A stretch of DNA of 64,000 bases from positions 1 through 64,000 of the forward strand of contig CAVYTU010000019.1 in NCBI GenBank assembly GCA_963771465.1. The letters run 5' to 3'. The position numbers were made by a program, and so were the translations under genes. Below, piece after piece: positions 40,086-59,298 of this stretch (its first letter is position 1; every line of letters begins with the position of its first letter). Source of the DNA: an uncultured delta proteobacterium (GTDB lineage Bacteria; Desulfobacterota; Binatia; UBA9968). The notes below the pieces were generated by a model, which worked only from the letters and a program-made list of their open reading frames with translations, searched no databases and was not told the DNA's origin.

Positions 40086-40253
40086 ATGAAAAAAATGACC
40101 GCCAACCTCGAACGCCTAGTCTGTCCGAAATGCGATAGTAGCGACGTGCGGCTATCTCATTTGATGAATGAAATGGAGAAAGACGTAAGCCCTATATTTA
40201 TTAGCCCGTACCGCTGTCAGGATTGTGGGTATCGCTTCTGGGAAATGAATTAA
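40086..40253 (+). CDS. Small Zn-ribbon protein (55 aa)
   Basis: CPKC...PYRCQDCGYRF; stop lies 2 nt before the next ATG. Confidence 0.65.
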   Translation: MKKMTANLERLVCPKCDSSDVRLSHLMNEMEKDVSPIFISPYRCQDCGYRFWEMN

Positions 40254-40255
40254 CC

Positions 40256-42792: not shown

Positions 42793-44874
42793 GTGACCAT
42801 GAGCTCGACGGGACAGCAGACGCAGCGGAAGACGAACGCCGCGGCGCCAGGGCGCGTTCAGCCGTCCGGCAGTCCGGGCGCCGCCAAGGCTAACGTGCAG
42901 TCGAAGATGCCGCCGCGCAAGACGTGGCTGTGGTTCGTTCTCGTCTTGCTCGCTAACTTCTTGATCGTGCGGCTTCTCATACCGGGCCCCAAAGCACCGG
43001 TCACCGTGCCCTACACTCTCTTCAAGGAAGAAGTTAGGAAGCGCAACGTCGAGGCGATCTACACCCGGGGCGAGATCCTCACGGGCCGCTTCAAGACGAC
43101 GGTCACCTATCCGCGAGCGGGTGAAAAAAAAGCGCCCGACGGCGGGCCCCAGATCCCGAATCTTCGCGCGGATCGCCAGCCCGAACAGGTGAGTACCTTC
43201 GCGACCACGCTGCCCTCCTTCGTAGACCCGGGTTTGGAAACATTCTTAATCGATCATGGTGTCGAGATCAGCGCCGAGCCGATCCAAGAAAGCGAAAGCC
43301 CCTGGTCGACATTTCTTTTCGGCTTTGGCCCGGCCTTGCTGCTCATCGCTTTTTACGTCTGGCTATTCCGTCGGGCCGCGCAGCAGGGCGGCGCGATGGG
43401 CGGTGGCCTAATGGGCATCGGCCGCAGCAGGGCGCGGCGCTACGACGAGGAGAAGGACACGAAAGTCACCTTCAATGACGTTGCCGGCATCGACGAAGCC
43501 GAAAACGAGCTGGTCGAGATCGTGGATTTTCTCCGCGACCCCAAGAAATACACGCGCCTGGGCGGGGCCGCTCCGAAAGGCGTGCTCTTGATCGGCGCGC
43601 CCGGCACCGGGAAAACCTTGTTGGCGCGAGCGGTCGCGGGAGAAGCGGGGGTGCCGTTCTTCTCGATGAGCGCTGCGGAGTTCGTCGAGATGATCGTCGG
43701 GGTCGGTGCGGCGAGAGTGCGCGATCTTTTCAAGCAGGCGCGCGAGCAAGCGCCCGCGATCGTCTTCATCGATGAGCTGGATGCCATCGGCCGCGCGCGC
43801 GGGCAGATGGCGCTCGGCGGGTCGAGCGAACAGGAGCAAACTTTGAATCAAATCCTAACCGAAATGGACGGGTTCTCGAGCCGGGAGGGCATCATCGTAT
43901 TGGCGGCGACGAATCAACCCGACGTGCTCGACAAAGCGCTGTTGCGGCCGGGACGCTTCGATCGGCGCGTGGTGGTGAACCTGCCGGATAAGACCGGGCG
44001 CGAAGCGATCTTGAAAGTTCACACTCGCAGCGTGCCGCTGGCGAACGACGCAAACTTAGGCGAAGTCGCCGCCACGACGCCGGGGTTCTCGGGGGCCGAT
44101 CTAAAAAACCTGGTGAACGAGGCGGCGCTGCTGGCGGCGCGGCGCGAGCAGAACGAAGTGCGTTACAAAGATTTCCTCGACGCGCTCGAGAAGATCGTGC
44201 TCGGCCCCGAGCGGCCACTTCTCTTGACCCGCGCCGATAAGGAACGCATCGCCTACCACGAGGGAGGGCACGCCATCCTCGGTCTAGTGGTGCCCGGCGC
44301 CGACCCGGTGAATCGGGTGACGATCGTGCCGCGCGGGCAAGCTCTCGGTGTGACTTATCAGCGCCCCGACAGCGACCGCTATAACTATCCGGAAGCCTAT
44401 TTGCGCGCGCGCATCGTCGGCATGTTGGGAGGCCGCGCGGCCGAGGAGATCGTTTACGGCACCAAGACGACCGGCGCGGAAAGCGACATCGAGCAAGCCA
44501 CCGGCTTGGCGCGCCGGATGGTCACGCGCTGGGGCATGAGCGAGCGCGTCGGACTGGTAGAGCTCGCGCCGCGTGAGAACCCTTACCTGAGCGGCGCCAA
44601 CGGTTACGGCGGCGCCAAGCCATTCAGCGAGAGAACCGCTGAAGCCATTGACGCCGAGGTGCTCAAGATCATCGGCGAAAGCCACGACGAGGCCAAGCGA
44701 CTCTTGAACGCGCATCGCAAGCAACTCGACGCGCTCGTTGAAGCCCTGCTGTTGCGCGAGACCCTCAACGAGCAGGAAATCCTCGATGCCACGGGGCTCC
44801 CGCGTGCGCCAGCGCTCGAGACGGGGATCCTGCCTCTTACCGATGCGGACAGCGGGAGCGCTCACGACCTCTAA
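42793..44874 (+). CDS. ftsH: ATP-dependent zinc metalloprotease FtsH (probably an accessory paralog)
   Basis: Two TM segments; [29 protein letters not shown]. Confidence 0.96.
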
Positions 44875-45662: not shown

Positions 45663-46832
45663 CTAAAATCTCTTCAGGCTGAAACTACTGATATCGATCT
45701 TGCTTCTGCCGTCGATGACATGCTCCGCCAGCGCCTCGCCAATCCCCGCCGAATGTTTGAATCCATGTCCTGAGCAAGGCGACGCAATAATTATGCGATC
45801 GTTATCCGGGTGAACGTCGATGACGAAATTCGAATCCGGCGTCACGGTATACAGGCAACTCGCTGCGGTGTCGCAGCGATCGGAAATTCTCGGCAGACGG
45901 CCTTGGACATAATCTTTGTACATGGATTGCGCTTCTTCCATGCCGACCGCCCGCTGCGCGTGATCTGGATCGGTGAGCGTTGTGAATTGCTCGGTCGCGA
46001 TCTTGATAGTTTTGCCGTCGAGCGTCGGGAAGCCATAGAAACCAAACTCGCCGCCCTTGGCAAAGATCCAAATGAAAATCGGAAAGCGCGCTGGCGCAAA
46101 CGTCGAGCCGCAATCATCCCTGATGTCGAACCAGTACATGACTTGCCGGGATACCTTGAATAAATGCGCGTATGCCGGCGGTAGAAAGCTGGCAATCCAA
46201 GGTCCGGCGGTGATGATGACTTTCTCGGCGCAGTAGGCGCCGCGGCTGGTCGTAACCGTCACGCCGGCATCGCCGCGGCTTTCGACCGAAACTACGGTCT
46301 CGTCAGTTTGAACAATCGCGCCGTGCTTGCGCGCAAGATGCAGTTGCATCTCGATACAAAGTTCCGGCCTGAGAAATCCCGTTTCATATTCGAAGTAAGC
46401 GCGCTCATCGGTTACGGCAAACTGCGGAAAGCGTTTTCTTATGTCCGCGGTTTCGAAGATTTCATGGCGGATGTCGAACTTCTCGGCACAGCGGATCGCT
46501 TGATCCAAAAAATCACGCCGGCCGTGCAAAGCGGCCTCGCTCTTTTGACTTTCCAGGGTCAGGCCGCCCGTGATCGTCAAGAGCTTCTTGCCGGTTTCGT
46601 TTTCGATCTCGCGCCACAATTCATAAGAGCGCAGGACCAAGGGGACGTATTCCTCGCCTTCGCCAATCGCCTGTCGGATAATCCGACTCTCGCCGTGGGA
46701 CGAGCCGTTGGCATGCGGCGGGGAAAACCGGTCGAGGCCAAGCACTTTGTTGCCGCGTTTCGCGAGTTGGTAAACCGCAGCGCTCCCCATGGCGCCGAGA
46801 CCGACTACGATCGTGTCGAACTGAGTGATCAT
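45663..46832 (-). CDS. solA: N-methyl-L-tryptophan oxidase / monomeric sarcosine oxidase
   Basis: GLGAMG, GSSHGESRIIR, CLYTVTPD, CSGHGFKH. Confidence 0.92.
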   Translation of the reverse strand: MITQFDTIVVGLGAMGSAAVYQLAKRGNKVLGLDRFSPPHANGSSHGESRIIRQAIGEGEEYVPLVLRSYELWREIENETGKKLLTITGGLTLESQKSEAALHGRRDFLDQAIRCAEKFDIRHEIFETADIRKRFPQFAVTDERAYFEYETGFLRPELCIEMQLHLARKHGAIVQTDETVVSVESRGDAGVTVTTSRGAYCAEKVIITAGPWIASFLPPAYAHLFKVSRQVMYWFDIRDDCGSTFAPARFPIFIWIFAKGGEFGFYGFPTLDGKTIKIATEQFTTLTDPDHAQRAVGMEEAQSMYKDYVQGRLPRISDRCDTAASCLYTVTPDSNFVIDVHPDNDRIIIASPCSGHGFKHSAGIGEALAEHVIDGRSKIDISSFSLKRF

Positions 46833-47065
46833 TGCTCCGGCGTCGGTTTATTACGGCTCTGCCCGGCACGCAAGACCTCCCGCAGGTCCAAGAGCCTTCC
46901 TGATAAAGCAGAACCACCGTGCTAGCGGCGATGCTTCTAAACGGCGAAGTCGGAAAGTTGTAGTCGATAAGACAAGCTAGGGTGAGAGGCGCTTATGATT
47001 CTCGATTACTTGCTAGGGAAGAGATCGCTCTCTCCCCTAGCCAAACTCGTCCTTTCCGGTTGTCA

Positions 47066-47368
47066 TTATTCACCGTCCTCATAGATCTCGCGCTGCATCA
47101 CGCGCCGCTGTGCTCTGATCTCATCGATTCCCACGACGTCATGATCACACGACCCGTAGAAGTCAACGATGTTGCCGGCGTCCTCGTTGAGAACCGGTCG
47201 ATCCCACGACAGAGTATCTTCGCGCATGGGCGGGAACTTCATGTGGCAGTACTCACCGGCCTCGGCCGGAACCCGCACGATGGGCAGATCGGTCGCCGCC
47301 ACGGGTAGCCCCCAGAACAGCGTGGAAGACAGCAGCAGGTTGGATAGAAGCGATATACCTTTAGTCAT
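47066..47368 (-). CDS. Small secreted protein of the YCHMKFP...DFYGxCDHD family
   Basis: AGGAGGT RBS; signal peptide; paralog of 14177-14404. Confidence 0.8.
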   Translation of the reverse strand: MTKGISLLSNLLLSSTLFWGLPVAATDLPIVRVPAEAGEYCHMKFPPMREDTLSWDRPVLNEDAGNIVDFYGSCDHDVVGIDEIRAQRRVMQREIYEDGE

Positions 47369-47419
47369 TTTGTTCACCTCCTTTCCGTTTGAACTTTTAC
47401 TCCCTGCCTGAGCGACTAC

Positions 47420-47434
47420 GCATCGATCGTGCCA
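47420..47434 (-). promoter_or_regulatory. Sigma-54 (-24/-12) promoter
   Basis: Minus strand TGGCAC-GATCG-ATGC, about 50 nt upstream of the ATG at 47368. Confidence 0.7.
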
Positions 47435-47686
47435 ATAATCGATACCGCCAACTCGCATGTTCCCTATGACGAATGGAATGCCAATCGCGCGATTGCAGGG
47501 AGAATATCGAGGTAAAATTGCCGTTGAGAAATCGGTTAGCGATTTCATTGTGCAAACCTAGTTGACGATGTGGCACCCAAGTTACCAGTGCGCACAGCGA
47601 CCATTGACCGGCAAGAAGCGAGACTGATACAGTGCGGCGTAAATCGGCTACGCTGGTGATTTTAATCGGTTAATCAGGAGGTCAAT

Positions 47687-48802
47687 ATGGCGATCGGACT
47701 TTCACACGGCGGCTCTAACGTATACGCCGCGACGGAGCGTTCGCGGCAACTGTGGGTTGGCACCCAGGACGGGCTCGTGCTCTTCGAACGCGGCGCCGAC
47801 GGCTGGCGCGAAGCACAGCGCGCGCTGCGCGGCCAACACATCAGCTCGATCATCTTCGAAAAATCCAGCGGCACGATGTTCGCCGGCGCGTTCTTCGGTT
47901 CGATTCACGCCAGCGCCGACGGCGGCAAAACCTGGGAGCGGCGCGATAACGGCATGACGATTCACGATGTCTACAGTCTCGCCTCCCACGTCGTCGACGG
48001 CAAAGTGCGCGTCTATGCCGGCACCCAACCCGCGCATCTGTTCGTCAGCGAAGACTTGGGAACGCACTGGAGTGAGATTGCATCGCTGCGCGAAGTTCCC
48101 ACCACCTCGCAATGGTCGTTTCCCGCGCCGCCCCACGTCGCGCATACGAAATTCATCACCTTCGATCCGCGCGACGCTCACACCATCTATGCCTGCGTCG
48201 AACAGGGCGCGTTTTTAAAAAGCAGCGACCTGGGCAAAAGTTGGCGCGAGCTCAACACCGTCGGTTTATACCAGGATAAGAACCGCCCGGTGGAGCATTT
48301 TTATGACGTGCACCGCTGCTTGATCGATCCGCGCGATCCACAAAGCATTTACGTCACCGGCGGCGCGGGGCTTTACGTGACTCATACGGGCGGCGGCAGC
48401 TGGGAACGCTGGACCGCAGCCGACTGGGCGGCGGATGTTTATCCCGACGGCTTTGTCTGGAATCCGAAAAACCCCGACACGATGTTTGTCGCGGCAGCCG
48501 AGCATAATCCGGTAACCTGGCGCAAGGCCGGGGCGGCGGCGCGCGCCGAAGGCAAACTTTATCGCAGTAAAGACGGCGGAAAAAACTGGCAACGGCTCGC
48601 CGGCGGGCTGCCGTCGAGTTTGAAGCACGAGTTCGGCGCGCTTTGCCTCGAAGAAGCCAACGGCGCCTGCGCGATCTTCGGCGGCACCACCGGCGGCGAA
48701 GTCTATTGCAGTGAAGACAACGGCGAGAACTGGACGTTGATCACAACTGAATTGGCGCCGATCTCGAAGAAAGGGCATGAAAGATTGTTAGCGGCGAGCT
48801 GA
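47687..48802 (+). CDS. Cytoplasmic BNR/Asp-box beta-propeller protein
   Basis: AGGAGG RBS; repeated S.D.G.(T/N)W motifs; WSFPAPPHVAH; no signal peptide. Confidence 0.88.
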   Translation: MAIGLSHGGSNVYAATERSRQLWVGTQDGLVLFERGADGWREAQRALRGQHISSIIFEKSSGTMFAGAFFGSIHASADGGKTWERRDNGMTIHDVYSLASHVVDGKVRVYAGTQPAHLFVSEDLGTHWSEIASLREVPTTSQWSFPAPPHVAHTKFITFDPRDAHTIYACVEQGAFLKSSDLGKSWRELNTVGLYQDKNRPVEHFYDVHRCLIDPRDPQSIYVTGGAGLYVTHTGGGSWERWTAADWAADVYPDGFVWNPKNPDTMFVAAAEHNPVTWRKAGAAARAEGKLYRSKDGGKNWQRLAGGLPSSLKHEFGALCLEEANGACAIFGGTTGGEVYCSEDNGENWTLITTELAPISKKGHERLLAAS

Positions 48803-49011: not shown

Positions 49012-49761
49012 ATGACTGTCTCATCCGACAAACCCGGCGCCGCACTGGCCGAGCAGCTCATCAAGCAAAGCCAGGCCGAGGCTGCGGCCACGCCGATGGA
49101 CGCGGTGCTTGACGCGGCGCGCGCGGGGCGCTTTACCGACGATCGCTGTTTTCGCCTGCTCGCGCGGCTGTGGACGCTTAAGCGCACGATGTATTACGTC
49201 TACGGCGGCTGGGCCCAGGGAATCAACCTAAACGACTATCCGCCCGCGGTCGCTTATCTGTTCGGCAAACAAACCCATGACGAGTCGACTCAAGAGATGC
49301 AGCTTTGCGATGAGATGCTGCGCCGCGGCTGGGCGCCGACACAGAAAAAACTGTTCGAGCATCCCTATGCGCAATTTGGCACCGCAACGCGCACTGGCTC
49401 GTACATCTTTTGCTTGCGCGCCTTGGCCAACTATCCGCAAAACATTCGCATCGCCGCGCACAATCTCGGGCCCAAAGTGATCGAACTCGCCTGGACCGAG
49501 AAGTTCGCCAAGTTATTTCCCGATGAATCCATGCACGCGCTGTTTCACAGCCAACTTGCCGAGACCCGCAGCCACGTGCTCATGGGCCGTTTTCAGGTGG
49601 AAAGATTCGTAACCAAGCAAGTCGACGCCGAATTAGCCACGCGGCTATGCGCCGAAACCCGGCGCGACTATTTGTTCTTTCTCGAAGAGAGCGCGCGCTT
49701 CGTCTTGGGTTTAGCGGAAGAAAAATCCGGCGAAGTCACAGTGCAAGCGGACATCGACTGA
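49012..49761 (+). CDS. Ferritin-like fold protein with degenerate diiron ligands
   Basis: KQTHDESTQ and SQLAETRSH align with RQIWDEVKH and SQSAEELMH of 50239-50979. Confidence 0.7.
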   Translation: MTVSSDKPGAALAEQLIKQSQAEAAATPMDAVLDAARAGRFTDDRCFRLLARLWTLKRTMYYVYGGWAQGINLNDYPPAVAYLFGKQTHDESTQEMQLCDEMLRRGWAPTQKKLFEHPYAQFGTATRTGSYIFCLRALANYPQNIRIAAHNLGPKVIELAWTEKFAKLFPDESMHALFHSQLAETRSHVLMGRFQVERFVTKQVDAELATRLCAETRRDYLFFLEESARFVLGLAEEKSGEVTVQADID

Positions 49762-49829
49762 GCGCTTACACAATTTGGAATATGGAATCTGGAATTTGTA
49801 ATCTGTAATCCAGCGCCGCACGGGGACTC

Positions 49830-50102
49830 ATGGCATCGCTCAAGATAGATCACGCAAAATGCACCGAGTGCCGCATGTGCTACGTCGTCTGCCGCGAGAT
49901 CGAAATCAACGCGGTGGTCGTCTCGCCGACTTCGCAGCATCTCTTGGAAATCGACGAGCGCTGCACCTATCCAGGTTGCACGGTATGCTTGATGTATTGT
50001 CCAGCCGAAGGCTCGATTGTTGAAAGCGACACCGGCCGTTCAATGGTGCCGCCACCCCCAGAAGTCTGGACCGAAAATAGAAGATGGTTGCGGCTCCCTT
50101 GA
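49830..50102 (+). CDS. 2x[4Fe-4S] ferredoxin
   Basis: CTECRMCYVVC and CTYPGCTVCLMYCP. Confidence 0.88.
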   Translation: MASLKIDHAKCTECRMCYVVCREIEINAVVVSPTSQHLLEIDERCTYPGCTVCLMYCPAEGSIVESDTGRSMVPPPPEVWTENRRWLRLP

Positions 50103-50126
50103 ACAGTCAGGTAAATTTGAACTCAG

Positions 50127-50200
50127 AGAAAGATTTCTCGCAGGGCTCGAAATGACAAGCAAGCTGCGTTGTCATCTCGAACGGAGTGAGAGATCTTTCC
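50127..50200. repeat. REP-like inverted repeat
   Basis: GAAAGATTTCTC...CGAAATGACAA / TTGTCATCTCG...GAGAGATCTTTC. Confidence 0.7.
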
Positions 50201-50238
50201 CAACATAAATGAATGAAAGCACTTGATCGGAGCCAAAC

Positions 50239-50979
50239 ATGCACCCAATTTTGACCGACTTCTTAGACAAGTGGGTTTACCCCACCGGCTTCACCGGCCC
50301 CGGCGTCGACTTTCGTCTACGCCAAACCGAACGCTGCCTGCCGCTGTGGGACAAGCTGGTGTTGCAAGCGATCAAGGCTGCCGGGAACGATTTACAATCC
50401 GGCAGCGACGAATACAAAGCGGCGCGCGCCCGCGGCGGTTACGCCGCCGAGGGACCGTTCATGTCGCTCAAACAAATGTCGACGCAGATTCTTTCCGTCG
50501 AGATCAGCGAGCAGCCGAAATATATCGACCTCCAGCGCATGCGCGCGCGGCAAATCTGGGACGAGGTCAAACATGGCCAGCTCCATGCCGACGTGCTATT
50601 GCGCGGCGGCTTCATCAAGCGTGAAGAAGAATTGATGGACGATGCGCGCGCCAACACCCAGCCGAAGCTTTCTTACTTCGGCATGACCGCCATGTTTCCG
50701 CACATCCACCCGCTCGCCCGCGCCGGCCAGCATTATTACAACGAGTCGATGGCGTGCCTCGGCATCGCCGCAACGCTGAGCGTCATCGACGACGAGCTCA
50801 TTCGCCACCAGTTGCACAGCCAGTCGGCGGAAGAATTGATGCACTTCATGGAAGGCAAATATCAGATCGACGCCTACGCGCTCACGCCGGCAGAGCAGAA
50901 GCCCATCGAAGAAGTTTTCGATTTTCTGCTCAGACCGTGGGCGCCCGAGCCAAGTCGCGCGTTGGGCGGCAACGCGTGA
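50239..50979 (+). CDS. Ferritin-like diiron-carboxylate protein
   Basis: E...ExxH...E...ExxH pattern: AAEG, DEVKH, YNES, EELMH. Confidence 0.8.
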   Translation: MHPILTDFLDKWVYPTGFTGPGVDFRLRQTERCLPLWDKLVLQAIKAAGNDLQSGSDEYKAARARGGYAAEGPFMSLKQMSTQILSVEISEQPKYIDLQRMRARQIWDEVKHGQLHADVLLRGGFIKREEELMDDARANTQPKLSYFGMTAMFPHIHPLARAGQHYYNESMACLGIAATLSVIDDELIRHQLHSQSAEELMHFMEGKYQIDAYALTPAEQKPIEEVFDFLLRPWAPEPSRALGGNA

Positions 50980-50992
50980 AGCGAGCGGCAGC

Positions 50993-51193
50993 ATGAAAGT
51001 CCGAATCGTCGAAACCCTCTGCATCGCCTGCGGCCTGTGCCGCGAAGTCTGTCCTGAGCGCGCCGTCCATCCCAAGATGCAGGACATCCACCACATGTAC
51101 GAAGTGGTCGAAAGCGAATGCACCGGCTGCGCCGAGTGCCTGCCCTATTGTCCCGAACCGGGGGCGCTGCAGCAGTATGAATTGGCCTCGTGA
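50993..51193 (+). CDS. 2x[4Fe-4S] ferredoxin
   Basis: CIACGLCREVCP and CTGCAECLPYCP. Confidence 0.92.
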   Translation: MKVRIVETLCIACGLCREVCPERAVHPKMQDIHHMYEVVESECTGCAECLPYCPEPGALQQYELAS

Positions 51194-51633
51194 GTCGCGG
51201 TTCAGCTTACAGTTCCGCTAAATCAAGCATCAAACCCGTGCCCACTGTATCCGTCACACGTCTTCATCTGCGTTCGCCACGATTTCTTCTGCCGTTCTTC
51301 TTGCGCACCCATAGATCGCGCCGCCAGGCGACCCGCGCGCCCGGCAACCTGGGCGTTCGCGTGCGTAAGACTGATGGCCTAGCGTTTTGGACGCTCACAC
51401 TCTGGCGCGACATGGCGGCGATGAGATCGTTCGTGATGGCTTCGCCGCACAGAGAAGCGATGCAAAAACTTGCCAACTGGTGCGATGAAGCCGCCTTCGC
51501 CCACTGGGACCTAGATATCATCGACTTACCGACATGGGACATCGCCGTCGACAAACTCCGTGTCAGCGGTCATCTCGCCACGGTGCTGCATCCGTCCGAG
51601 AAGCATAAAGCCGGCGAAATCGTCGTGTCATGA
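51190..51633 (+). CDS. DUF3291-like dimeric alpha-beta barrel protein
   Basis: SVTRLHLRS..FL..F, FWTLTLW...MRSF...PHREAM..L..WCDEA. Confidence 0.75.
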   Translation: MSRGSAYSSAKSSIKPVPTVSVTRLHLRSPRFLLPFFLRTHRSRRQATRAPGNLGVRVRKTDGLAFWTLTLWRDMAAMRSFVMASPHREAMQKLANWCDEAAFAHWDLDIIDLPTWDIAVDKLRVSGHLATVLHPSEKHKAGEIVVS

Positions 51634-51767
51634 AAGTTCAAGACTTCGCGTCGTGACGATGGCGTGACCAAAGCCCGATCTCCAACCTTTCACGCGCCAG
51701 CGCATTCAGTTCACCTTGACATCCCAGGTTCGATCACACTAAAAGTTGGCACTTCGGAGGATTTGTT

Positions 51768-52952
51768 ATGTCCAGCGACTCACGCACTCGCGGCCTCGCC
51801 GAAACCTGCAACCAACGCGGCCCGAATCGGCCGCTGTTCACCAAAGGCGGTCCACCCAACTATGTGGAAAAATCACTGGCGGCCGCCGCCGAGCCATTCA
51901 AGGGAATCACCCGCGACGGCAGCGTGATTGCCGACTTGTTCAGCATGCAGAAGACCGGCGTCCCGACGCAGTCGATTCGCGCGGCTGCCGAAGCGTTTCT
52001 CGAATCGCTGACACCGGATCAACGCGCCAAGACGCTCTTTCCCGTCGCTACCGACCAATGGCGCAAGTGGAGCAACATCCATCCGACCTTGTTGCGCCAC
52101 GGCATGGCGCTGTTCGAGATGAACGATGACCAGCGCGATCGCGCCTTTGTGTTGCTCCGCGAAAGCTTGAGCCAACGAGGCTTCGAGGAAGCGCTCGACA
52201 TTATGCATTTGAATGAAACCGTCGTGGAATTGACCGGCCGGCTCGACGAATACGGCGAAGATCTTTATTGGCTGAGCATCATGGGCGCGCCGTCGGCGAC
52301 CGAACCGTGGGGCTGGCAGTGGGACGGCCATCATCTGATCATCAATTATTTCGTCCTTGGCGATCAGATCGTGGTGACGCCGACTTTCCTCGGCGCCGAG
52401 CCGGTGCATGCCGTCGGTGGCAAATACGCCGGCGTGCGCGCGTTCAAAGGCGACGAGGACCGCGGCTTGGCGCTGTTCCGCGTGCTTTCGGAGACGCAAC
52501 GCGCCAAAACCGTGATCGCGCCGGAAACTTTGGGCGAAGACTTTACCACCGCGTTTCGCGACAATCTCGTGCTCGATTACCAAGGCATCCGCTCCGATGA
52601 GTTGTCGACGGCGCAGCATGAGCTTTTGCTCGGCTTGGTCGAATATCACGTCGGCCGCATGCGCCATGGCCATGCGCAGGTGAAGATGGCTGAAGTGAAG
52701 CGCCACCTAAACGATACTTATTTTTGCTGGATGGGCGGCGGCTCCGACGACGGCGTTTTTTATTATCGGGTGCAGAGTCCGGTGATCATCGTCGAGTTCG
52801 ACCACCAGCGCGGTATCGCCTTTCGCGAACGCACCAAGCCCTATAAAGACCACATTCACGTCATCGTGCGCACGCCCAACGGCAACGACTACGGCAAAGA
52901 TTTGCTGCGACTGCATTATCAGCAGGGCCATCACGCCAGCGCGCGCCAATGA
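51768..52952 (+). CDS. DUF3500 domain protein
   Basis: GGAGG RBS; WSNIH, PWGWQWDGHHL..N, TPTFLG, YYRVQSP.I.VEFDH, HIH...RTPNGNDYG. Confidence 0.88.
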   Translation: MSSDSRTRGLAETCNQRGPNRPLFTKGGPPNYVEKSLAAAAEPFKGITRDGSVIADLFSMQKTGVPTQSIRAAAEAFLESLTPDQRAKTLFPVATDQWRKWSNIHPTLLRHGMALFEMNDDQRDRAFVLLRESLSQRGFEEALDIMHLNETVVELTGRLDEYGEDLYWLSIMGAPSATEPWGWQWDGHHLIINYFVLGDQIVVTPTFLGAEPVHAVGGKYAGVRAFKGDEDRGLALFRVLSETQRAKTVIAPETLGEDFTTAFRDNLVLDYQGIRSDELSTAQHELLLGLVEYHVGRMRHGHAQVKMAEVKRHLNDTYFCWMGGGSDDGVFYYRVQSPVIIVEFDHQRGIAFRERTKPYKDHIHVIVRTPNGNDYGKDLLRLHYQQGHHASARQ

Positions 52953-53022
52953 TTCAAGATCGCTCAATGAACAACTACGCTGCAAATCCCGCGGTATCAG
53001 GCAATGAAAATTGTCTTCAAGG

Positions 53023-53100
53023 CGTCACCCCCGAATGTTTTTAACGGGGGTCCAGTCCCGGAACCGCCTGGATTCCCGCTTAAAGCATGCGGGAATGACG
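53023..53100. repeat. REP-like inverted repeat
   Basis: GTCACCCCCG...CGGGGGTCCAG / CTGGATTCCCGC...GCGGGAATGAC. Confidence 0.7.
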
Positions 53101-53202
53101 AACTTCGGAAGGCAATTGACTTAACGCAGCGAGCTGCGCGAAAACGAACCTTAGAGATTGATTTGGCAAAGCATCAGCGGCATTTATGACCGGGGAGGTT
53201 TC

Positions 53203-54192
53203 ATGATCATCGCAAGACACTGCATTCTTTGCATCGCTGTCTGGATGATTCTCCTCGCCTCCACCGCCCACACGGAAAAAATTCGCACCAGCATCCCTGG
53301 GTCGAATCTGAATTATCTCAGCGTCTTCAGCGCCGAAGAGCGCAAGTTCTTCCGCGACGAAGGCTTGGAAAATGAAACCATCTCCATCGGCGGTCCCGCC
53401 GGCATCGCCGCGCTGGTCAGCGGCGATGTGGATTTTAGCGGCGCCGGCGGCAGCGGTCTGCGCGCTGCCGTCCGAGGCGCGCCTTTAAAAGCGATATTCT
53501 ACCAGACGGAAAAACCGACCTGGTATTTGATCGTTCACCCGAGTATCGCCCAGGGCGCCGATCTCAAAGGCAAAAAGATCGGCGTGGCGCTGATCGGCGA
53601 TAGCGAAGACCGTTTCATTACCTTGTTCGCCGAGCGCGCCGGAGTATCAGCCAAAGACGTGACGAAGATATCGTTGGGCACCAGCATCGGCGACAAAATC
53701 CTCGGCGTCAAAAGCGGCAACGTTTCCGCCGTGGTTCTCGATCCGGCCGGCACCGTCGCGGCCGAACGCGAAGGGTTGCGCAAGCTGGCGTATCTCGGTG
53801 ATATGTTTCCGCTCCCGTTTCAGGGCTACGTGGCGACCAATCAGAAGCTCGCGGAAAACCCGGCACAAGTAAAAAGATGGATCCGAGCGATGACCCGGTC
53901 GCTGCTTTTCATTCGCGATCGACCTGAAGACGCCGCCGACATCGCACTGCGCCGCTTGCGCATCAAAAATATCACCAAGCCCATGTTGACCGAGGCGATT
54001 CGCAGTTACGTGCGCGCCTTTCCCCCAGGCATCCCCGGCGTGCCGTCGGCGGAAGGCGTAAAAAGCATTCTCGAGCACGAACTGAGAATCCCGCTCAAGC
54101 TCGACAAGCCGCTCGCCGCGGAGAATTTTTTCGAACTGCGTTGGGCGGAAGAAGTGCGGAGAGAGATGGAAGCCAAAGGCGCGAACCCGTAG
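53203..54192 (+). CDS. NMT1/SsuA-type ABC substrate-binding protein
   Basis: FFRDEGL, ALVSGDVDF, DLKGKKIGV. Confidence 0.88.
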   Translation: MIIARHCILCIAVWMILLASTAHTEKIRTSIPGSNLNYLSVFSAEERKFFRDEGLENETISIGGPAGIAALVSGDVDFSGAGGSGLRAAVRGAPLKAIFYQTEKPTWYLIVHPSIAQGADLKGKKIGVALIGDSEDRFITLFAERAGVSAKDVTKISLGTSIGDKILGVKSGNVSAVVLDPAGTVAAEREGLRKLAYLGDMFPLPFQGYVATNQKLAENPAQVKRWIRAMTRSLLFIRDRPEDAADIALRRLRIKNITKPMLTEAIRSYVRAFPPGIPGVPSAEGVKSILEHELRIPLKLDKPLAAENFFELRWAEEVRREMEAKGANP

Positions 54193-54232
54193 AAAAATCG
54201 CGCAATGGCGCAACTAAATAGTCAAGAAAGTT

Positions 54233-54313
54233 TTCACCACGAAGGACACGAAGAGCACGAAGTCAAGAATTTTTATTTCCGAACCTTCGTGTCCTTCGTG
54301 ATCTTCGTGGTGC
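54233..54313. repeat. Palindromic CACGAAG x3 / CTTCGTG x3 intergenic repeat
   Basis: CACCACGAAGGACACGAAGAGCACGAAG...CTTCGTGTCCTTCGTGATCTTCGTGGTG. Confidence 0.8.
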
Positions 54314-54365
54314 GATCGGATTTTCGCATCGAACTGTTTCGGATTTCAGCGAAGGAGACACCGAT

Positions 54366-55361
54366 ATGTCTCAACTCGGTCTGCGAATTTTTTGCTGTCT
54401 TGGGATTGTCGCGGCAATCGCTTCTTCATGCCCAAACGCGCCAGCGCAAACGCCGCTCAAAAAACTCCGCCTCGGCATCGCCGCCACCAGCGTCGGCTTT
54501 CTGCCGATCTACGCGGCCCATCAGAGAGGTTTTTATCGAGACGAAGGCATCGATCTGGAAATTATCCTGATGTCGCTCGCCGTGGCGAACAACGCGTTCT
54601 TCAAAGGCGAGATCGAGTATAGCGCCGGACTCACCGGCCTAGCGCTTGCCGCGGCGCGAAATTATCCGGCAAAAATTTTGATCTTCACCATCATCAAGCC
54701 GCTGCAATCCTTCGTCAGTCGCAAGGAAATCAAGGAGCCGCGCGATCTGAAAGGCAAGAAAGTCGCCGGCAGCTCGCCCGGCGGCTCGGCGACGATACTC
54801 GCCTACCAAGCTTTGAAACATTTCGGCCTCGAGGCGGGGAAAGACGTGCAGGTCTTGCCGATGGGCGGCTCGGGAGCAGGGCGGCTCGCGGTGCTGGAAC
54901 AGGGCGTCGTCGACGCCGCTTTACTCTCGGTGCCGGAAAATATTATCGCCGTCAATAAAGGCTACAACGAACTGATCTTTCTCGGCGACGTGGTCAATTT
55001 TCCGCAGAATGGTTTCGGCACCTCGGTTACACGCATCCAACAGCAGCCGGATGAAGTTTATCGCATGGTGCGCGCAACCCTGCGCGGGTTGCAGTTCGTC
55101 ACCGACGAAGCCAACCGCGAGCCAGCGCGCGATGTCATGATGAAACAATGGCGCGTCAGCGATCAGAAGCTCGCCGCCGAAATGCTCGGCTACCTCAAGC
55201 GCGGCCTGGCCAAGGACGCGGTGGTCAGTCCGCAAGCGGTGCAATACTTCATCGATTTGACCCGCGAGACTTCCAATGTGTCACAACCCATCGCCGGCTC
55301 CCAGGTCGTCGACTTCAGTTTTCTCGAAAAAGCGCGTAAAGATTTGGCACTGACTCGCTAA
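54366..55361 (+). CDS. NMT1/SsuA-type ABC substrate-binding protein
   Basis: GFYRDEGIDLE, DLKGKKVA, VDFSFL. Confidence 0.88.
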   Translation: MSQLGLRIFCCLGIVAAIASSCPNAPAQTPLKKLRLGIAATSVGFLPIYAAHQRGFYRDEGIDLEIILMSLAVANNAFFKGEIEYSAGLTGLALAAARNYPAKILIFTIIKPLQSFVSRKEIKEPRDLKGKKVAGSSPGGSATILAYQALKHFGLEAGKDVQVLPMGGSGAGRLAVLEQGVVDAALLSVPENIIAVNKGYNELIFLGDVVNFPQNGFGTSVTRIQQQPDEVYRMVRATLRGLQFVTDEANREPARDVMMKQWRVSDQKLAAEMLGYLKRGLAKDAVVSPQAVQYFIDLTRETSNVSQPIAGSQVVDFSFLEKARKDLALTR

Positions 55362-55382
55362 CGACAAAAGGAGGCTACGCCA

Positions 55383-56015
55383 ATGCTCGAATTCGAAGGC
55401 AGACAAATTCCCAACCGGTTGAATGAAGTCGTCGATGCCAAACGCACGGTGCTGCTGGTCTGGGACATGCAGAACGACCAAGCCGGCGGTTCGTTCAACA
55501 AAGAAGCGTTAATCCGCAACGCCCCGCCGCTGATCGCCGCGGCGGCGAAGGCGGCGGTAAAAACCGTCTACACGCGCCAGACGCCGTTCCTGTGGAAAGA
55601 CGAAGCGGTGACCTGGATACGGCGGGCGATGAAGGATCAAAAGGTCGATCATCCAAGCCAGCTCAAACCACGCCGGCTGCACGGCAGCGTCGGCTGGAAT
55701 ATCATGGAGCCGTTTAAGCCCACTGCCAATGACGTCGTCATCGACAAACGGCGACCGAGCATGTTCGTCGGCAACGAGTTCGAAACCATCATGCACAACC
55801 GCGGCGCGACCACGGTCGTCATGATCGGCTGCACCACCGACGGCGGCGTCGAGATGACCGTGCGCGACGGCCACAACCGCGGTTATTCAATGGTCATCGT
55901 CCGCGACTGCGTCGGAACCTATACCGAGGAAGGCCATAACGCCGCGCTGAAGCGCATCGAACGCTTCGCCGACGTGGTCGAGTCCAAAGAGCTGATCGAC
56001 ATTTGGGCGAAATAG
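55383..56015 (+). CDS. Isochorismatase-family hydrolase
   Basis: LLVWDMQND, IDKRRPSMF, GCTTDGGVEMTVRD (usual catalytic Cys position is Gly). Confidence 0.88.
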   Translation: MLEFEGRQIPNRLNEVVDAKRTVLLVWDMQNDQAGGSFNKEALIRNAPPLIAAAAKAAVKTVYTRQTPFLWKDEAVTWIRRAMKDQKVDHPSQLKPRRLHGSVGWNIMEPFKPTANDVVIDKRRPSMFVGNEFETIMHNRGATTVVMIGCTTDGGVEMTVRDGHNRGYSMVIVRDCVGTYTEEGHNAALKRIERFADVVESKELIDIWAK

Positions 56016-56021
56016 TTCGCC

Positions 56022-56426
56022 ATGTCTTCGGCCATCAGCGCTATTCTGGAAAAGTTTCGCCGCGGCGACGAGGAAGATGCGTTTTACGATCTCTTGGAAT
56101 TGCCGGGAGAACTGCTGCCGGATTTGATTCGCGAATTTGACACCGAACCGGAACCGCACATTCGCGCCTTGCTGATCAAAGTCGCCTGGGAGCGAAAAGA
56201 AAACGGCATTGTGCCGTTTCTCCACCGCGCCTTGGAAATTCCCGATGAGTTAGTCTGGCAGCAAGCGTTGGACGGCTTGGTCGCATTCGCTTCGCCGGAG
56301 GTGCATGAAATTCTTCTAAACGCGCGCGCTAGAGAGTTTGCCGACGCCACACTCACCAACCGTTTCCGCCTCTGGCTCGAAGAGGCGATTCAGCAGGTCG
56401 AATTCGAACTGCGGGCCAAGCGATAA
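56022..56426 (+). CDS. HEAT-repeat-like hypothetical protein
   Basis: Amphipathic helices; VPFLHRAL..PDELVWQQALDGL. Confidence 0.65.
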   Translation: MSSAISAILEKFRRGDEEDAFYDLLELPGELLPDLIREFDTEPEPHIRALLIKVAWERKENGIVPFLHRALEIPDELVWQQALDGLVAFASPEVHEILLNARAREFADATLTNRFRLWLEEAIQQVEFELRAKR

Positions 56427-56512
56427 TTCGCTATTGCCCCGATTGCGAATCCCCTCCCGAACGAGTTAAAAGAGGCATAAATTCTCTCGGCATTGCGTCA
56501 AAGGAGATCATC

Positions 56513-57481
56513 ATGAGCGCAACGAGCGGTCAGAAAGCCCTCCATGTGGCGACCTTTTCCGGCTGGTATCGCTTCGAACAAGACGGCAAACAATTTACCC
56601 AAACCAAGCGTGACCTAAGCTATTGGACGCTCACCTGCATGTCGGTGGACCAAGAAGATCCGAAAACGATCTACGCCGGCACGGAGCACTCAGGGCTTTT
56701 TTATACCAAGGATGCCGGCGCCCATTGGCAGCGCGCCGATCCGCAAGTGCCGAAAATGTTTCTCTACTCCGCGCTAGCGATAAACGGCGGTGTCATGGTC
56801 GGCACGATTCCGTCGGCGGTCTACCGCAGCAAGAACGGCGGCTGGGAGGAATTGGCAGGCGTGCGCTTGCATAGCGCCGGCGCCAATTTTCCGCCGAGCC
56901 CTGAACTTCAGTCGCGCACGCGCTATCTGGCCGTCGACCCGGAAAATAAAAATCGCCTGTACGCCGGCATCGAAGTCGGCGGCATGGTGCTGAGCGACGA
57001 CGGCGGCCGCGCGTGGGAGCCGTGCAACGAAGGCCTCACCGACATGGACATCCACGAGATCCTGGCATCGCAGCAGCACAGCGGCATGGTCTTTCTGGCC
57101 TGCGGCGAAGCCTGTTTTCGCAGCGCCGACCGCGCCCGTCATTGGCAGAGCATCTCGCCGAAAAATCACGACTACGGCATCTCCGTCGCCGAAGACAAGA
57201 ACGGCGTCGTCTATGTCGGCGCAGCGAGAGGACGACCGAATCTCTGGCTACGCGAAGGAGGCGCCATGTCGGCGATCTTGCGCAGCAGCGACAAAGGCGA
57301 AACCTGGGAAACCGTCGTCGACAACTTGAATGGCGGCGTCATGCATCTCTGCCCGACGCCCGACGGCAACGGCATGATCGCCGGCACATCGGACGGAACT
57401 CTGCTGGTTGTCGACGACGACGGCGTGCGCCAAGTCGCGAGCGGCCTGCCATTCGTCACAAGCGTCGAACTAGCAGCGTAA
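56513..57481 (+). CDS. Second cytoplasmic BNR/Asp-box beta-propeller protein
   Basis: AAGGAG RBS; SDDGGRAW, SSDKGETW, YAGIEVGG, DIH. Confidence 0.85.
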   Translation: MSATSGQKALHVATFSGWYRFEQDGKQFTQTKRDLSYWTLTCMSVDQEDPKTIYAGTEHSGLFYTKDAGAHWQRADPQVPKMFLYSALAINGGVMVGTIPSAVYRSKNGGWEELAGVRLHSAGANFPPSPELQSRTRYLAVDPENKNRLYAGIEVGGMVLSDDGGRAWEPCNEGLTDMDIHEILASQQHSGMVFLACGEACFRSADRARHWQSISPKNHDYGISVAEDKNGVVYVGAARGRPNLWLREGGAMSAILRSSDKGETWETVVDNLNGGVMHLCPTPDGNGMIAGTSDGTLLVVDDDGVRQVASGLPFVTSVELAA

Positions 57482-57547
57482 GGAGAAATCACGGGATTGC
57501 TAGAAAGACGGGCGCAGCTTGCTGCGCCCCTACAATCGGAAACACTA

Positions 57548-58543
57548 ATGCGAATAATGATCGGGCTTCTCTATCTCTGTCTCTATCTTCCTTCTTTCGT
57601 CGCGGCCCAAGACGCCAAGCTCATTTCCGAAGCAAAGAAAGAAGGCAAGGTCGTCATTTACGGTTCCATGGAAACCGATATCTTCGAGGGCGTACAGCAA
57701 GCATTTGAGAAGAAGACCGGCATCAAAGTCGATTATTGGCGCGCCGCCGGCGCCACGGTGCTCGAACGCGCTTCGAGCGAACGGCGCGCCAATAAAGTCG
57801 GCTATGATTTAGTTTTGAATAATGCCGGGCCGATGGAGATCTTGCTCGCCGAGGGCGCCTTAACGAAATACGACTCGCCGCTGGCGAAAAACTTCGCCGC
57901 CGAGTTTCAACATCCGCAGCTTGGACCGAGCTATCGCACGAGCATCGTCGGCATTGTCTACAACAAGAGCATCTTGAGCCCGGATAAAGCGCCTAAATCG
58001 CTCGAAGATTTGCTGAAGCCGGAATTCAAAGGCAAGCTCGCCTTCGCTGATCCCCAGCGCGGCGCGGTCGCGGTCATGTGGCCGATGAGTTTGTACAAGC
58101 TCATGGGCAAGGAGCGCGCCGATAAATATCTGCGCGATCTCGCGGCGACCAAGCCTGTCATCGTCGAAGGTGTTTTGCCCGCCGCCGAGCGTGTCACCAC
58201 CGGTGAGACGCCGGTGGCGATTACTTATTTGAAATACGTCATCGGCTTCGGCCAAAAAGGCGCGCCGCTCGATTACGTCCGGCAGGACAAGATGCTCGGC
58301 CATGGTCACGCGATTGCGATGAGCAGCCGCGCCGCGCACCCCAACGCGGCGAAAGCATTCCTCGACTATTTCTACAGCGACGATAGTTTGAAAGTCATGG
58401 CCAAGTTCGGCGAATTCGTCACCCGCAAAGGCATAAACCCGCCGCTCGCCGATGCGGACAAGATTCAAGTGGTGGAAATGGACGAGCCTGACGCCAATAC
58501 CATGGCTGAGAAGCGCAAGGAGTACCGAAAGATTTTTCAGTAG
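57548..58543 (+). CDS. ABC transporter extracellular solute-binding protein (Fe3+-like family)
   Basis: AKKEGKVVIYGS, PKSLEDLLKPEFKGK, HPNAAKAFLDY. Confidence 0.9.
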   Translation: MRIMIGLLYLCLYLPSFVAAQDAKLISEAKKEGKVVIYGSMETDIFEGVQQAFEKKTGIKVDYWRAAGATVLERASSERRANKVGYDLVLNNAGPMEILLAEGALTKYDSPLAKNFAAEFQHPQLGPSYRTSIVGIVYNKSILSPDKAPKSLEDLLKPEFKGKLAFADPQRGAVAVMWPMSLYKLMGKERADKYLRDLAATKPVIVEGVLPAAERVTTGETPVAITYLKYVIGFGQKGAPLDYVRQDKMLGHGHAIAMSSRAAHPNAAKAFLDYFYSDDSLKVMAKFGEFVTRKGINPPLADADKIQVVEMDEPDANTMAEKRKEYRKIFQ

Positions 58544-58553
58544 AGGTCTTACC

Positions 58554-59198
58554 ATGAAGCTTTATACTTTCTTCCGCAGCTCTGCTTCCTACCGTGTGCG
58601 CATCGCGTTGAATCTGAAGGGCATCGGTTGCGAGCAGGCGCCGATCCATCTGCGCCGCGGCGGCGGCGAACAGTTGAGCGCCGCATATCGCGCGATCAAT
58701 CCGCAAGCGCTCGTACCGGCGTTGGAAGACGACGGCAGGATTCTCACCCAATCGCTGGCGATCATCGAGTATCTCGACGAAAAGCATCCCAACCCGCCGC
58801 TGCTGCCGCAAGACCCGACGGACAAAGCGATCGTCCGCAGCATGGCGTTGGTGATCGCCTGCGAAGTCCATCCGATTCAGAATTTGCGCGTATTGAATTA
58901 TGTCAAAGCGACTTACCACCAGACCGACGAGCAAGTGAACCAATGGGCGCAGCATTGGATCGATCTGGGTCTAGACGCGCTCCAAGAAATGATCGTCGCC
59001 CAACCCAAGCGCGGCAAGTTCTGTTTCGGCGACACGCCGACGTTGGCCGATATTTGTTTGATCCCGCAGCTCGGCAACGCGCGCCGCTACGGCTGCGACT
59101 TGGCGAAATATCCGACGATTTTAGCAATTGAAAAAAACTGCAACGCGCTCCCCGCCTTCGCCGACGCCGCGCCGGAAAAACAGCCGGATGCCGAATGA
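58554..59198 (+). CDS. maiA: Maleylacetoacetate/maleylpyruvate isomerase (GST zeta)
   Basis: MKLYTFFRSSASYRVRIALNLKG, INPQALVP, TQSLAIIEYL, HPIQNLRVL. Confidence 0.93.
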   Translation: MKLYTFFRSSASYRVRIALNLKGIGCEQAPIHLRRGGGEQLSAAYRAINPQALVPALEDDGRILTQSLAIIEYLDEKHPNPPLLPQDPTDKAIVRSMALVIACEVHPIQNLRVLNYVKATYHQTDEQVNQWAQHWIDLGLDALQEMIVAQPKRGKFCFGDTPTLADICLIPQLGNARRYGCDLAKYPTILAIEKNCNALPAFADAAPEKQPDAE

Positions 59199-59298
59199 AG
59201 CACGGTTGCGAGTTTGGCGCTCGTGAAATCGTCTTTCGGGTTGCGGCGTAATCGGCGACCGGAAACCGGAAACTTATATCTGAAACACCTTCCGACCC

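Follow-up and report, generated by a model that had tools for sequence, protein, structure and literature searches.

A conserved, ferredoxin-linked gene block of uncultured soil bacteria as a candidate alpha/beta diiron oxygenase system

Introduction

What enzyme would be built from two paralogous proteins of about 250 residues, one with a complete set of putative diiron ligands and the other with most of them replaced, each followed by its own ferredoxin gene? The question is raised by four genes, here called A, Fd1, B and Fd2, at positions 49012-51193 of a 64,000-nucleotide stretch of DNA (the window; contig CAVYTU010000019.1, positions 1 to 64,000, of assembly GCA_963771465.1) from an uncultured delta proteobacterium of the Binatia lineage. 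An initial annotation of this DNA had proposed a catalytic and an inactive diiron subunit served by two ferredoxins. The architecture, comprising the paralogy of A and B, their heterodimer, the coupling to ferredoxins and the metal site, is likely to be as described below. As to function, the balance tips towards a self-contained four-protein, ferredoxin-fed alpha/beta diiron oxygenase of an undescribed family, which would catalyze O2-dependent hydroxylation of aromatic or heterocyclic rings in catabolism.

Results

The gene block and the putative catalytic subunit B

The genes, their motifs, the paralogy of A and B, the conservation of gene order and the predicted A-B interface were each obtained with computational tools. 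Four open reading frames (ORFs) fill the block, all on the plus strand and in the order that the initial annotation had given as ferritin-like 1, ferredoxin 1, ferritin-like 2, ferredoxin 2, with coordinates identical to those it listed. Spacers of 68, 136 and 13 nucleotides (nt) separate A from Fd1, Fd1 from B and B from Fd2, respectively.

49012-49761, plus strand: A, paralogue of the putative diiron subunit with a degenerate site and probably a structural or adaptor role, 249 residues (ORF, homology to B)
49830-50102, plus strand: Fd1, a 2x[4Fe-4S] ferredoxin whose C-terminal extension (VPPP..W) is conserved, 90 residues (Fer4_21, E 5.5e-9)
50239-50979, plus strand: B, the putative catalytic diiron-carboxylate subunit, 246 residues (invariant six-residue set)
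50993-51193, plus strand: Fd2, a clostridial-type 2x[4Fe-4S] ferredoxin, 66 residues (Fer4_21, E 1.1e-10; Fer4, E 2.4e-10)

The translation of B contains the motifs YAAEG (E71), DEVKH (E109, H112), YNES (E169) and EELMH (E199, H202), the full E...ExxH...E...ExxH set reported in the initial annotation. E71, E109xxH112, E169 and E199xxH202 are invariant in all 31 B sequences of a diverse alignment reaching down to 53% identity, and remain so in 17 of 17 sequences when remote relatives of 19-28% identity are added. With these relatives included, eight columns are invariant, namely the six putative ligands together with G124 and Q220. As the six residues account for six of the eight columns, this is the strongest sequence argument that they form a functional site. 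The ferritin-like six-ligand motif is thus complete in B and broken in A, where K57, Q94, K155 and T185 occupy four of the positions. In the structural model described below, the ligand pattern of B is of the ferritin kind, with four carboxylates and two histidines on four helices.

Relatives of B and A number at least 323 and at least 581, respectively, at E <= 1e-3 in a protein collection clustered at 90% identity. All are unnamed or "hypothetical" and most come from soil metagenomes and metagenome-assembled genomes (MAGs), the latter labelled Binatia, Deltaproteobacteria, Methylomirabilis and Eisenbacteria. An exhaustive hidden Markov model (HMM) search of 1.84 billion representatives with the B-family alignment gave 114 matches, which consist of one close full-length cluster at 50% identity, fragments, and nine remote proteins of about 250 residues. 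Each of the nine carries the six-residue motif of B and none has a Pfam family. No characterized enzyme was matched by either protein: Pfam and NCBIfam gave no family for A or B at E <= 1, searches of PDB sequences with A, B and the family profiles returned chance-level rows and nothing significant, and a plasmid collection gave no match. A described system of this kind was not found in the literature.

Subunit A and its predicted pairing with B

A shows the motifs Q87..D90-E91 and S180-Q-L-A-E184-T-R-S-H188..G192 in its translation. Its relationship to B is faint in direct comparison, where the BLASTP alignment spans no more than 29 residues (E 8e-4) and hhalign with shallow profiles gives 45% probability, and becomes clear with diverse profiles, where hhalign reaches 92.3% probability and E 5.6e-7 over 118 columns. 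The two proteins are further bridged by family X, a remote family of about 250 residues with the same six-residue motif as B that was found by a metagenome scan. In all 8 metagenome loci, family X is matched by A (E 3.6e-11 to 7.6e-7) as well as by B (E 9.7e-18 to 8.6e-15), and homology of the two subunits, on which the initial annotation depended, is upheld.

Mapping the ligand positions of A through family X in 30 A sequences reveals the extent of the loss. Position 57 is K in 19 sequences and E in 11, position 91 is E in 20 and D in 10, position 94 is H in 19 and Q in 11, position 155 is K in all 30, position 185 is T in 17, N in 11 and I in 2, and position 188 is H in all 30. The protein of the window reads K57, E91, Q94, K155, T185 and H188, such that K57, Q94, K155 and T185 stand for E, H, E and E. 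It therefore keeps two of the six ligands (E91 and H188), and no A sequence keeps more than four. These exact substitutions bear out the replacement by Lys, Gln or Thr that had been noticed initially. Judged from these alignments, A is a true paralogue of B with a degenerate site.

Co-folding predicts that A binds B. Three runs gave ipSAE values of 0.74, 0.79 and 0.75 (median 0.75) vs 0.00 for the best of three controls, with a predicted local distance difference test score (pLDDT) of at least 86 for the partner and 89-90 for the other chain, and at least 96% of contacts recur between the runs. Among solved complexes 58 of 80 attain this ipSAE mark, as do 2 of 110 mismatched pairs, a calibration that applies roughly here as custom alignments were used. 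The predicted interface comprises residues 58-96 and 111-122 of A and 72-117 and 129-139 of B, and on the A side it is enriched in invariant columns (13 observed vs 5.6 expected, p 8e-4). A like complex was not found in the PDB by sequence, and PaaAC-type heterodimers may inform the co-fold model. The median of 0.75 against 0.00 lends support to the idea of a catalytic subunit paired with an inactive paralogue.

The ferredoxins and family X

Fd1 and Fd2 each have the hallmarks of a 2x[4Fe-4S] ferredoxin, with two Cys motifs, eight ligands and a length within 55-100 residues. The cysteine pattern is CxxCxxCxxxC plus CxxxxCxxCxxxCP in Fd1 and two CxxCxxCxxxCP motifs in Fd2. Among 68 unique relatives of Fd1, residues C11, C14, C17, C21, C45, C50, C53, C57, P74-P76 and W80 are at least 95% conserved, and the eight Cys of Fd2 are conserved to the same degree among 65 unique relatives. 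The Fer4_21 matches and the eight retained Cys in each protein confirm that the partners are two different 2x[4Fe-4S] ferredoxins. In-frame fusions of B to Fd2 occur in P0047 and in locus L043 (L043:7001-7909), and P0052 looks like a frameshifted pseudo-fusion of the two.

The closest relative of Fd2 is the ferredoxin that precedes family X, at 41-43% identity, and such a gene is present in 5 of 5 family X loci with upstream room. An A-like partner beside family X was not found when L082:2857-3732 and L089:162-1556 were compared with the B-superfamily profile (hhalign probability 0.2%). The Fd2-like ferredoxin before X and the lack of a nearby A-like partner suggest that the coupling to ferredoxin is older than the duplication that gave rise to A and B. 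The family X modules (L082:1268-2323, L084:266-1285, L089:1490-2576), each a ferredoxin plus a putative diiron protein, are uncharacterized, and their neighbours include alpha/beta-hydrolases, a SnoaL-like protein, a CoA-transferase, an enoyl-CoA hydratase and xanthine-dehydrogenase-type Mo hydroxylases.

Conservation and distribution of the block

When 185,579 species were scanned, each represented by one genome, 123 relatives of B emerged, and 80 loci, all titled as MAGs, were compared. Room on both sides is available in 72 loci, and 65 of these show the genes in the order A-Fd1-B-Fd2, across carriers labelled Binatia, Rokubacteria/Methylomirabilota, Alphaproteobacteria/Stellaceae, Gammaproteobacteria and Dehalococcoidia, and the block is thus conserved under several phylum-level labels. 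Within the genus of the window, B is found in 9 of 18 other genomes (including the unpublished G205), with 0 of 12 genomes from sister families and 0 of 200 from a phylum sample. The patchy presence, together with identities of 55-97% across phylum labels, fits an accessory module spread horizontally. The block is 89-92% identical in MAGs labelled Binatia, a level that fits horizontal spread or inconsistent labels.

RNA-library contigs from four soil or rhizosphere libraries of four studies match the block region with 0-1 differences and cover parts of the upstream propeller gene, A, Fd1, B and the small ABM-like ORF that follows Fd2, the last by one contig over 51343-51649. Two junctions are bridged, Fd1-B at 50012-50283 and B-Fd2 at 50946-51096. 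The contigs are a weak hint of transcription and co-transcription of the block.

Predicted fold of B

The AlphaFold2 model of B (mean pLDDT 83.7) places the putative ligands on helices 58-71, 89-122, 158-180 and 186-213, in ferritin-like order, with a long crossover of low pLDDT (123-157) between the second and third ligand helices. Structural ranking with VIA-align, performed without a Foldseek pre-filter, is led by TenA (1rtw, Z 13.2 over 193 residues at a root-mean-square deviation (rmsd) of 3.4), followed by CADD (12.2), MiaE (12.1, 184 residues, rmsd 4.0), HrmI (12.0), the ADO-like ferritin protein 8fhc (12.0), UndA (11.9), PaaA (11.1, 174 residues, rmsd 3.2), BesC (10.7), PaaC (10.5, 165 residues, rmsd 3.2) and ADO (10.5). 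Dps and bacterioferritins match the four core helices with Z values of 9-10.7. As these values are tied at the helical-bundle background, the fold can be called a ferritin-like or haem-oxygenase-like bundle and no finer.

Profile searches point, marginally, to diiron enzymes. The best PDB match of the B-superfamily profile, and the sole one below 0.01, is the MmoX subunit of soluble methane monooxygenase (sMMO; E 0.0071), in an alignment that pairs E199xxH202 of B with the D-E-L-R-H helix of MmoX, which we take to be E243xxH246. The TenA homologue 3oql (E 0.11) and ribonucleotide reductase (RNR) beta (0.2) follow. The remote B relative P0351 has sub-threshold matches to COQ7, the RNR small chain and rubrerythrin at E of about 0.02 (rubrerythrin 0.025). 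The ESM Atlas places the proteins in unnamed Binatota clusters, with weak leads to DUF455 (0.89-0.90) and, for A, to Haem_oxygenas_2 PF14518 (0.88).

Genomic neighbourhood

The genes around the block in the window are as follows.

37225-38187, minus strand: putative cyclase, upstream of the block
40223-41122, plus strand: JmjC/cupin_8 hydroxylase-like protein, upstream of the block
42793-44874: presumably FtsH, recognized from its translation only
45663-46832, minus strand: N-methyltryptophan-oxidase-like flavin adenine dinucleotide (FAD) enzyme (NF008425, E 4.8e-137)
47687-48802, plus strand: BNR/sortilin/Ycf48-like beta-propeller, 209 nt before A (Pfam Sortilin-Vps10, BNR, PSII_BNR)
51190-51633, plus strand: ABM/DUF3291-like small ORF overlapping the Fd2 stop codon (DUF3291, E 2.9e-7; ABM, E 1e-5)
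51768-52952, plus strand: DUF3500 protein, candidate ring-cleavage enzyme (PF12006, E 2.6e-99)
53158-54192 and 54366-55361, plus strand: two NMT1/SsuA-like ABC substrate-binding proteins (PF09084; SsuA_fam, E 2.6e-21)
55383-56015, plus strand: isochorismatase-family (cysteine) amidohydrolase (PF00857, E 2.8e-42)
56513-57481, plus strand: second BNR/sortilin-like propeller (BNR2), the end of the Binatia-type neighbourhood (Pfam)
58452-59198, plus strand: glutathione S-transferase (GST)-family protein
61406-62683, plus strand: LigXa-like Rieske oxygenase (LigXa_C, E 5e-35)
62993-64000, plus strand: thiamin pyrophosphate (TPP) enzyme running off the window end

Loci of the Binatia type share the order propeller, A, Fd1, B, Fd2, DUF3500, (NMT1-type), isochorismatase-family amidase, (HEAT), propeller. 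The upstream propeller (cluster c5) stands directly before A in 24 loci, all of the Binatia type, and the downstream propeller BNR2 is likewise conserved in this type, with identities of 66-90%. The two propeller genes of the window are paralogous to each other; such genes bracket the Binatia-type neighbourhood at 66-92% identity and are absent from Alpha-type loci. DUF3500 lies downstream of Fd2 in L002-L004, L006-L008, L010, L012, L016 and L017, and its fungal counterpart has been proposed to be the ring-cleavage enzyme of 1,2,3,5-tetrahydroxybenzene (bioRxiv 10.1101/2023.06.06.543907). The DUF3500 protein of the window has a solved homologue, 9x86_A "Amc20" (E 2.6e-29); no paper on Amc20 (9x86) was found, the name returning unrelated papers only. 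The isochorismatase-family gene, which among named proteins is closest to biuret hydrolase, YecD and RutB, is located downstream in many Binatia-type loci. NMT1/SsuA-like binding proteins recur there as well. Their presence beside a protein of TenA-like fold brought up thiamin-pyrimidine salvage, with the binding proteins taken as THI5-like, as a candidate function; the full metal-ligand set of B, its ferredoxins and the large number of NMT1-like genes in these genomes spoke against this function, and it was dropped.

The 44 loci of the Alpha/Stellaceae type (L038 and L040-L081, excluding L039; "Alpha/other") carry a different set of neighbours. A class-III extradiol-dioxygenase-like (LigB-like) gene is present in 37 of the 44, typically upstream of the block, and an Amidohydro_2 gene in 35, typically downstream, with both in 30; housekeeping genes make up the rest of the surroundings. 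Among solved structures, the closest relatives of Amidohydro_2 are PtmU3 (6omp, E 1.9e-35), DitZ, ACMSD, LigW and gamma-resorcylate decarboxylase. PtmU3 was seen as the best relative for L042:8067-9242, an Amidohydro_2 gene with counterparts in 34 other Alpha/Stellaceae-type loci, ahead of ACMSD and the LigW decarboxylases. If PtmU3 is, as we assume, a TIM-barrel non-haem diiron monooxygenase, the Amidohydro_2 neighbour may be an oxygenase and not a decarboxylase. Elsewhere, the Dehalococcoidia locus (L037) has Rieske oxygenases on both sides and the gammaproteobacterial locus an aldo-keto reductase beside the block.

The neighbours thus differ by lineage yet, from their predicted families, point the same way, to aromatic catabolism. 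Two unrelated ring-cleavage candidates, DUF3500 and the LigB-like protein, stand beside the block in different lineages, as would be expected if the block hydroxylates a ring for cleavage. An aromatic or heterocyclic substrate had been suggested initially from maiA (GST-family), Rieske and TPP genes in the window. The suggestion itself is strengthened by the neighbours in other lineages, but the genes on which it was founded lie 7-12 kb downstream of the block, past an ABC-transporter operon; they are of the lignin-type aromatic catabolism kind but outside the conserved block. No reductase gene was found with Pfam among the neighbours at 45663-48802 and 51190-62284, in keeping with the initial remark that none is adjacent. 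A promoter and terminator scan gave counts equal to the shuffle level. The ABM/DUF3291-like ORF, with matches in 0 of 80 other loci by tblastn, seems to have been inserted between Fd2 and DUF3500 in this genome only, among the loci compared.

Discussion

A proposed mechanism and the evidence weighed

In the favoured reading, B would be the catalytic subunit, a helical bundle of about 250 residues in which four long helices supply four carboxylates and two histidines. A would be a paralogue of long standing in which bridging and terminal carboxylates are gone (K155 and T/N/I185 throughout, K57 and Q94 as well in this genome). It would pair with B via its most conserved segment, residues 58-96, in a structural or adaptor role like that of PaaC or a monooxygenase beta chain. 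A reductase whose gene lies elsewhere would supply electrons, which Fd1 and Fd2 would pass singly to the diferric site, and the reduced diiron site would activate O2. An aromatic or N-heterocyclic ring would most likely be hydroxylated, with epoxidation or O-demethylation as alternatives, and the product would be handed to the ring-cleavage enzyme and hydrolases encoded next door. Iron binding, the use of O2, the direction of electron flow and the substrate class are parts of this scheme that we infer.

Several observations weigh against the scheme. With regard to structure, Foldseek returns nothing from the PDB at E <= 0.001 (best UndA at 0.025, then MiaE and TenA homologues), the structural ranking ties ferritin-like with haem-oxygenase-like bundles within 1-2 Z at the common helical-bundle level of the tool, and the sequence links of B to known diiron families are marginal, the best having E 0.007 with the TenA homologue 3oql also appearing at 0.11. 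A folded alone on a shallow alignment reaches a pLDDT of 47.6, and the B side of the predicted interface lacks enrichment in invariant columns (8 vs 6.9 expected, p 0.38). Ferredoxins with eight iron atoms (8Fe) are unusual as donors for aerobic oxygenases and would suit reductive chemistry too. Among genes, no reductase, regulator or clear substrate-specific gene is conserved across all lineages and neighbours vary by clade; in Rokubacteria-type loci (L030, L031) a protein with adenylation, peptidyl carrier protein (PCP) and thioesterase domains is encoded directly downstream. Seven of the 72 loci depart from the block: L041 and L046 have A-B without Fd1 between, A is covered by less than 50% in L043, L044 and L075, L066 has B-Fd2 only, and L073 is without Fd2. 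No RNA contig on the DUF3500 gene was found in the four runs, and RNA libraries can hold DNA, their contigs showing neither strand nor level. In two of the departing loci (L041:1-2853, L046:325-4114), a ferredoxin or Amidohydro_2 gene is followed by a LigB-like gene and then directly by A and B.

Part of this evidence would suit an oxidase of the haem-oxygenase-like diiron oxidase (HDO) kind with a biosynthetic or tailoring role. It would serve to make a secondary metabolite or cofactor, and its substrate, amino-acid-like or bound to a carrier, would undergo N-oxygenation, desaturation-decarboxylation or C-C fragmentation. TenA, CADD, HrmI, UndA and BesC lead the structural matches of B (Z 10.7-13.2 over about 190-207 residues), the Atlas lead for A is PF14518, L030 and L031 have the adenylation-PCP-thioesterase gene directly downstream, and the nearest solved relative of the Alpha-type Amidohydro_2 protein, PtmU3, belongs to a biosynthetic pathway. 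Such a role is nevertheless unlikely. The Z values tie with those of the ferritin-like MiaE, PaaA and ADO, most neighbourhoods are catabolic with no other biosynthetic core genes recurring, and the ligand sets differ: HDO enzymes use three histidines and three carboxylates with an HxxxD/ExxH helix, whereas B has Q195xxxE199xxH202, with Q195 at the position of the extra His, and four carboxylates with two His on four helices. Somewhat less probable still is a very divergent PaaAC- or BoxB-like epoxidase acting on an aryl-CoA thioester instead of a free ring. Such an enzyme would account for the catalytic subunit with a ligand-less paralogue, as in PaaA/PaaC, and for paired clusters, as BoxA has two [4Fe-4S] clusters (PMC4498308); the PaaA and PaaC chains align with B at Z 10.5-11.1, and family X in L082 lies beside a family-III CoA-transferase and an enoyl-CoA hydratase. 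Yet no PaaA/PaaC or Box model of Pfam or NCBIfam is matched at E <= 1, PaaB, PaaD and PaaE were not found, no CoA ligase stands beside the block in the window or among the examined Binatia- and Alpha-type neighbours, and DUF3500 and LigB-like proteins act on free polyphenols in known cases.

The two free ferredoxins and the lack of a nearby NAD(P)H reductase would equally suit a ferredoxin-driven reductive enzyme whose dimetal site is kept reduced by the low-potential 8Fe ferredoxins, and which makes no use of O2 and performs epoxide or N-oxide deoxygenation, dehydroxylation, or nitro or hydroxylamine reduction. The initial annotation had kept a reductase as an option, and BoxB has been suggested to deoxygenate its epoxide (PMC5489048). 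We consider this improbable, to about the same degree as the thioester epoxidase, given that the host bacteria look aerobic (genes for FAD amine oxidase, Rieske oxygenase and JmjC-like hydroxylase proteins occur in the window itself), that the neighbours are O2-dependent ring-cleavage candidates, and that proteins with this set of four Glu and two His are overwhelmingly O2- or H2O2-activating. Least probable of all is a protective system of the rubrerythrin or ferritin-like kind, serving as a ferredoxin-dependent peroxidase, O2 reductase or iron-handling protein with no organic substrate. The alignment of the core helices with Dps and bacterioferritins, the weak rubrerythrin match of P0351, and ferredoxin-type donors, which are typical of such systems, are consistent with it. 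The patchy accessory presence (9 of 18 genomes in the genus, 0 of 12 in sister families), the constant linkage to catabolic enzymes, the degenerate partner subunit, about 50 extra and strongly conserved N-terminal residues, and the absence of a rubredoxin domain speak against protection.

Taken together, the evidence leans towards the ring-hydroxylating oxygenase. If this is true, a compact four-protein architecture would be added to the non-haem diiron oxygenases, and two sizeable families now only "hypothetical" (at least 323 and at least 581 clusters at 90% identity) would receive a name. It would offer a handle on aromatic carbon turnover in abundant uncultured soil lineages and would link DUF3500, the proposed fungal ring-cleavage enzyme, to a bacterial partner enzyme. 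The system would also show, in a natural case, how a small catalytic bundle acquires an inactive paralogue and electron carriers of its own, and a hydroxylase of about 250 residues with dedicated ferredoxins would make an attractive chassis for biocatalysis. A wider evolutionary proposal is put forward tentatively, as one that may well not hold in full: the A/B superfamily would be hard-wired to 8Fe ferredoxins, starting from an ancestral ferredoxin plus a protein of about 250 residues (X) that was duplicated to an alpha/beta pair with two ferredoxins. This would be an independent re-invention of the dead-subunit design of PaaAC and the monooxygenases, exchanged horizontally among uncultured soil bacteria (Binatia, Rokubacteria, Stellaceae and others) for hydroxylation of lignin-derived or N-heterocyclic rings ahead of enzymes such as DUF3500.

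Comparison with known systems

Small diiron enzymes of the MiaE, COQ7 and ADO kind resemble B in size (200-250 residues) and in the four-helix diiron core that is predicted for it, and ADO takes its electrons from a ferredoxin. They differ in acting alone, without a degenerate partner, in having no ferredoxin encoded alongside, and in that B has no match to their sequence models. Where the ferredoxin of ADO-type enzymes is known, it is of the plant [2Fe-2S] type. The HDO enzymes (UndA, CADD, HrmI, BesC, SznF) have a length similar to that of B and the best whole-chain structural similarity to it (Z 10.7-12.2, with TenA at 13.2), but lack a partner paralogue and dedicated ferredoxins, and the ligand pattern of B is, on its model, of the ferritin kind.

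The multicomponent monooxygenases (sMMO MmoX/MmoY and the phenol and toluene enzymes) share with the block the four Glu and two His and the alpha/beta paralogues of which beta is without a site. Their alpha chains, in contrast, have about 500 residues, and they require a gamma subunit, a coupling protein, and an FAD/[2Fe-2S] reductase or Rieske ferredoxin; B has 246 residues and neither MmoB/DmpM nor an FAD/[2Fe-2S] reductase was found among the scanned neighbours.

BoxA and BoxB resemble the proposed system as a diiron oxygenase of aerobic aromatic catabolism fed through two [4Fe-4S] clusters. BoxB is much larger than B. The clusters of BoxA are joined to an FAD/NADPH domain, whereas the ferredoxins of the block are free-standing with no flavin reductase linked. 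BoxB is monomeric and needs no structural subunit according to PMC4498308, which is also the source for the two clusters.

In PaaA/PaaC, a catalytic diiron subunit is paired with a ligand-poor paralogue of similar size in a heterodimer, the two having 17% identity and the same fold with PaaC being structural (PMC4498308); for A and B, the heterodimer is predicted. Both systems have the ferritin-type E/ExxH/D-or-E/ExxH ligand pattern. PaaC has about 248 residues and PaaA 309. With these sizes in mind, the 249 and 246 residues of A and B agree with the "only about 250" of the initial annotation but are less unusual than it implied. PaaABCE is set apart by its PaaB bridging subunit, PaaD, the class-IA reductase PaaE and a CoA-ligase context, none of which belongs to the block: no Pfam or NCBIfam family matches A or B at E <= 1, PaaB, PaaD and PaaE are absent among the scanned neighbours, and the electrons here would come from two free 8Fe ferredoxins. 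With these differences, PaaA/PaaC and BoxAB are the closest known designs, the former for its catalytic and ligand-poor paralogues and the latter for its supply of electrons through two [4Fe-4S] clusters.

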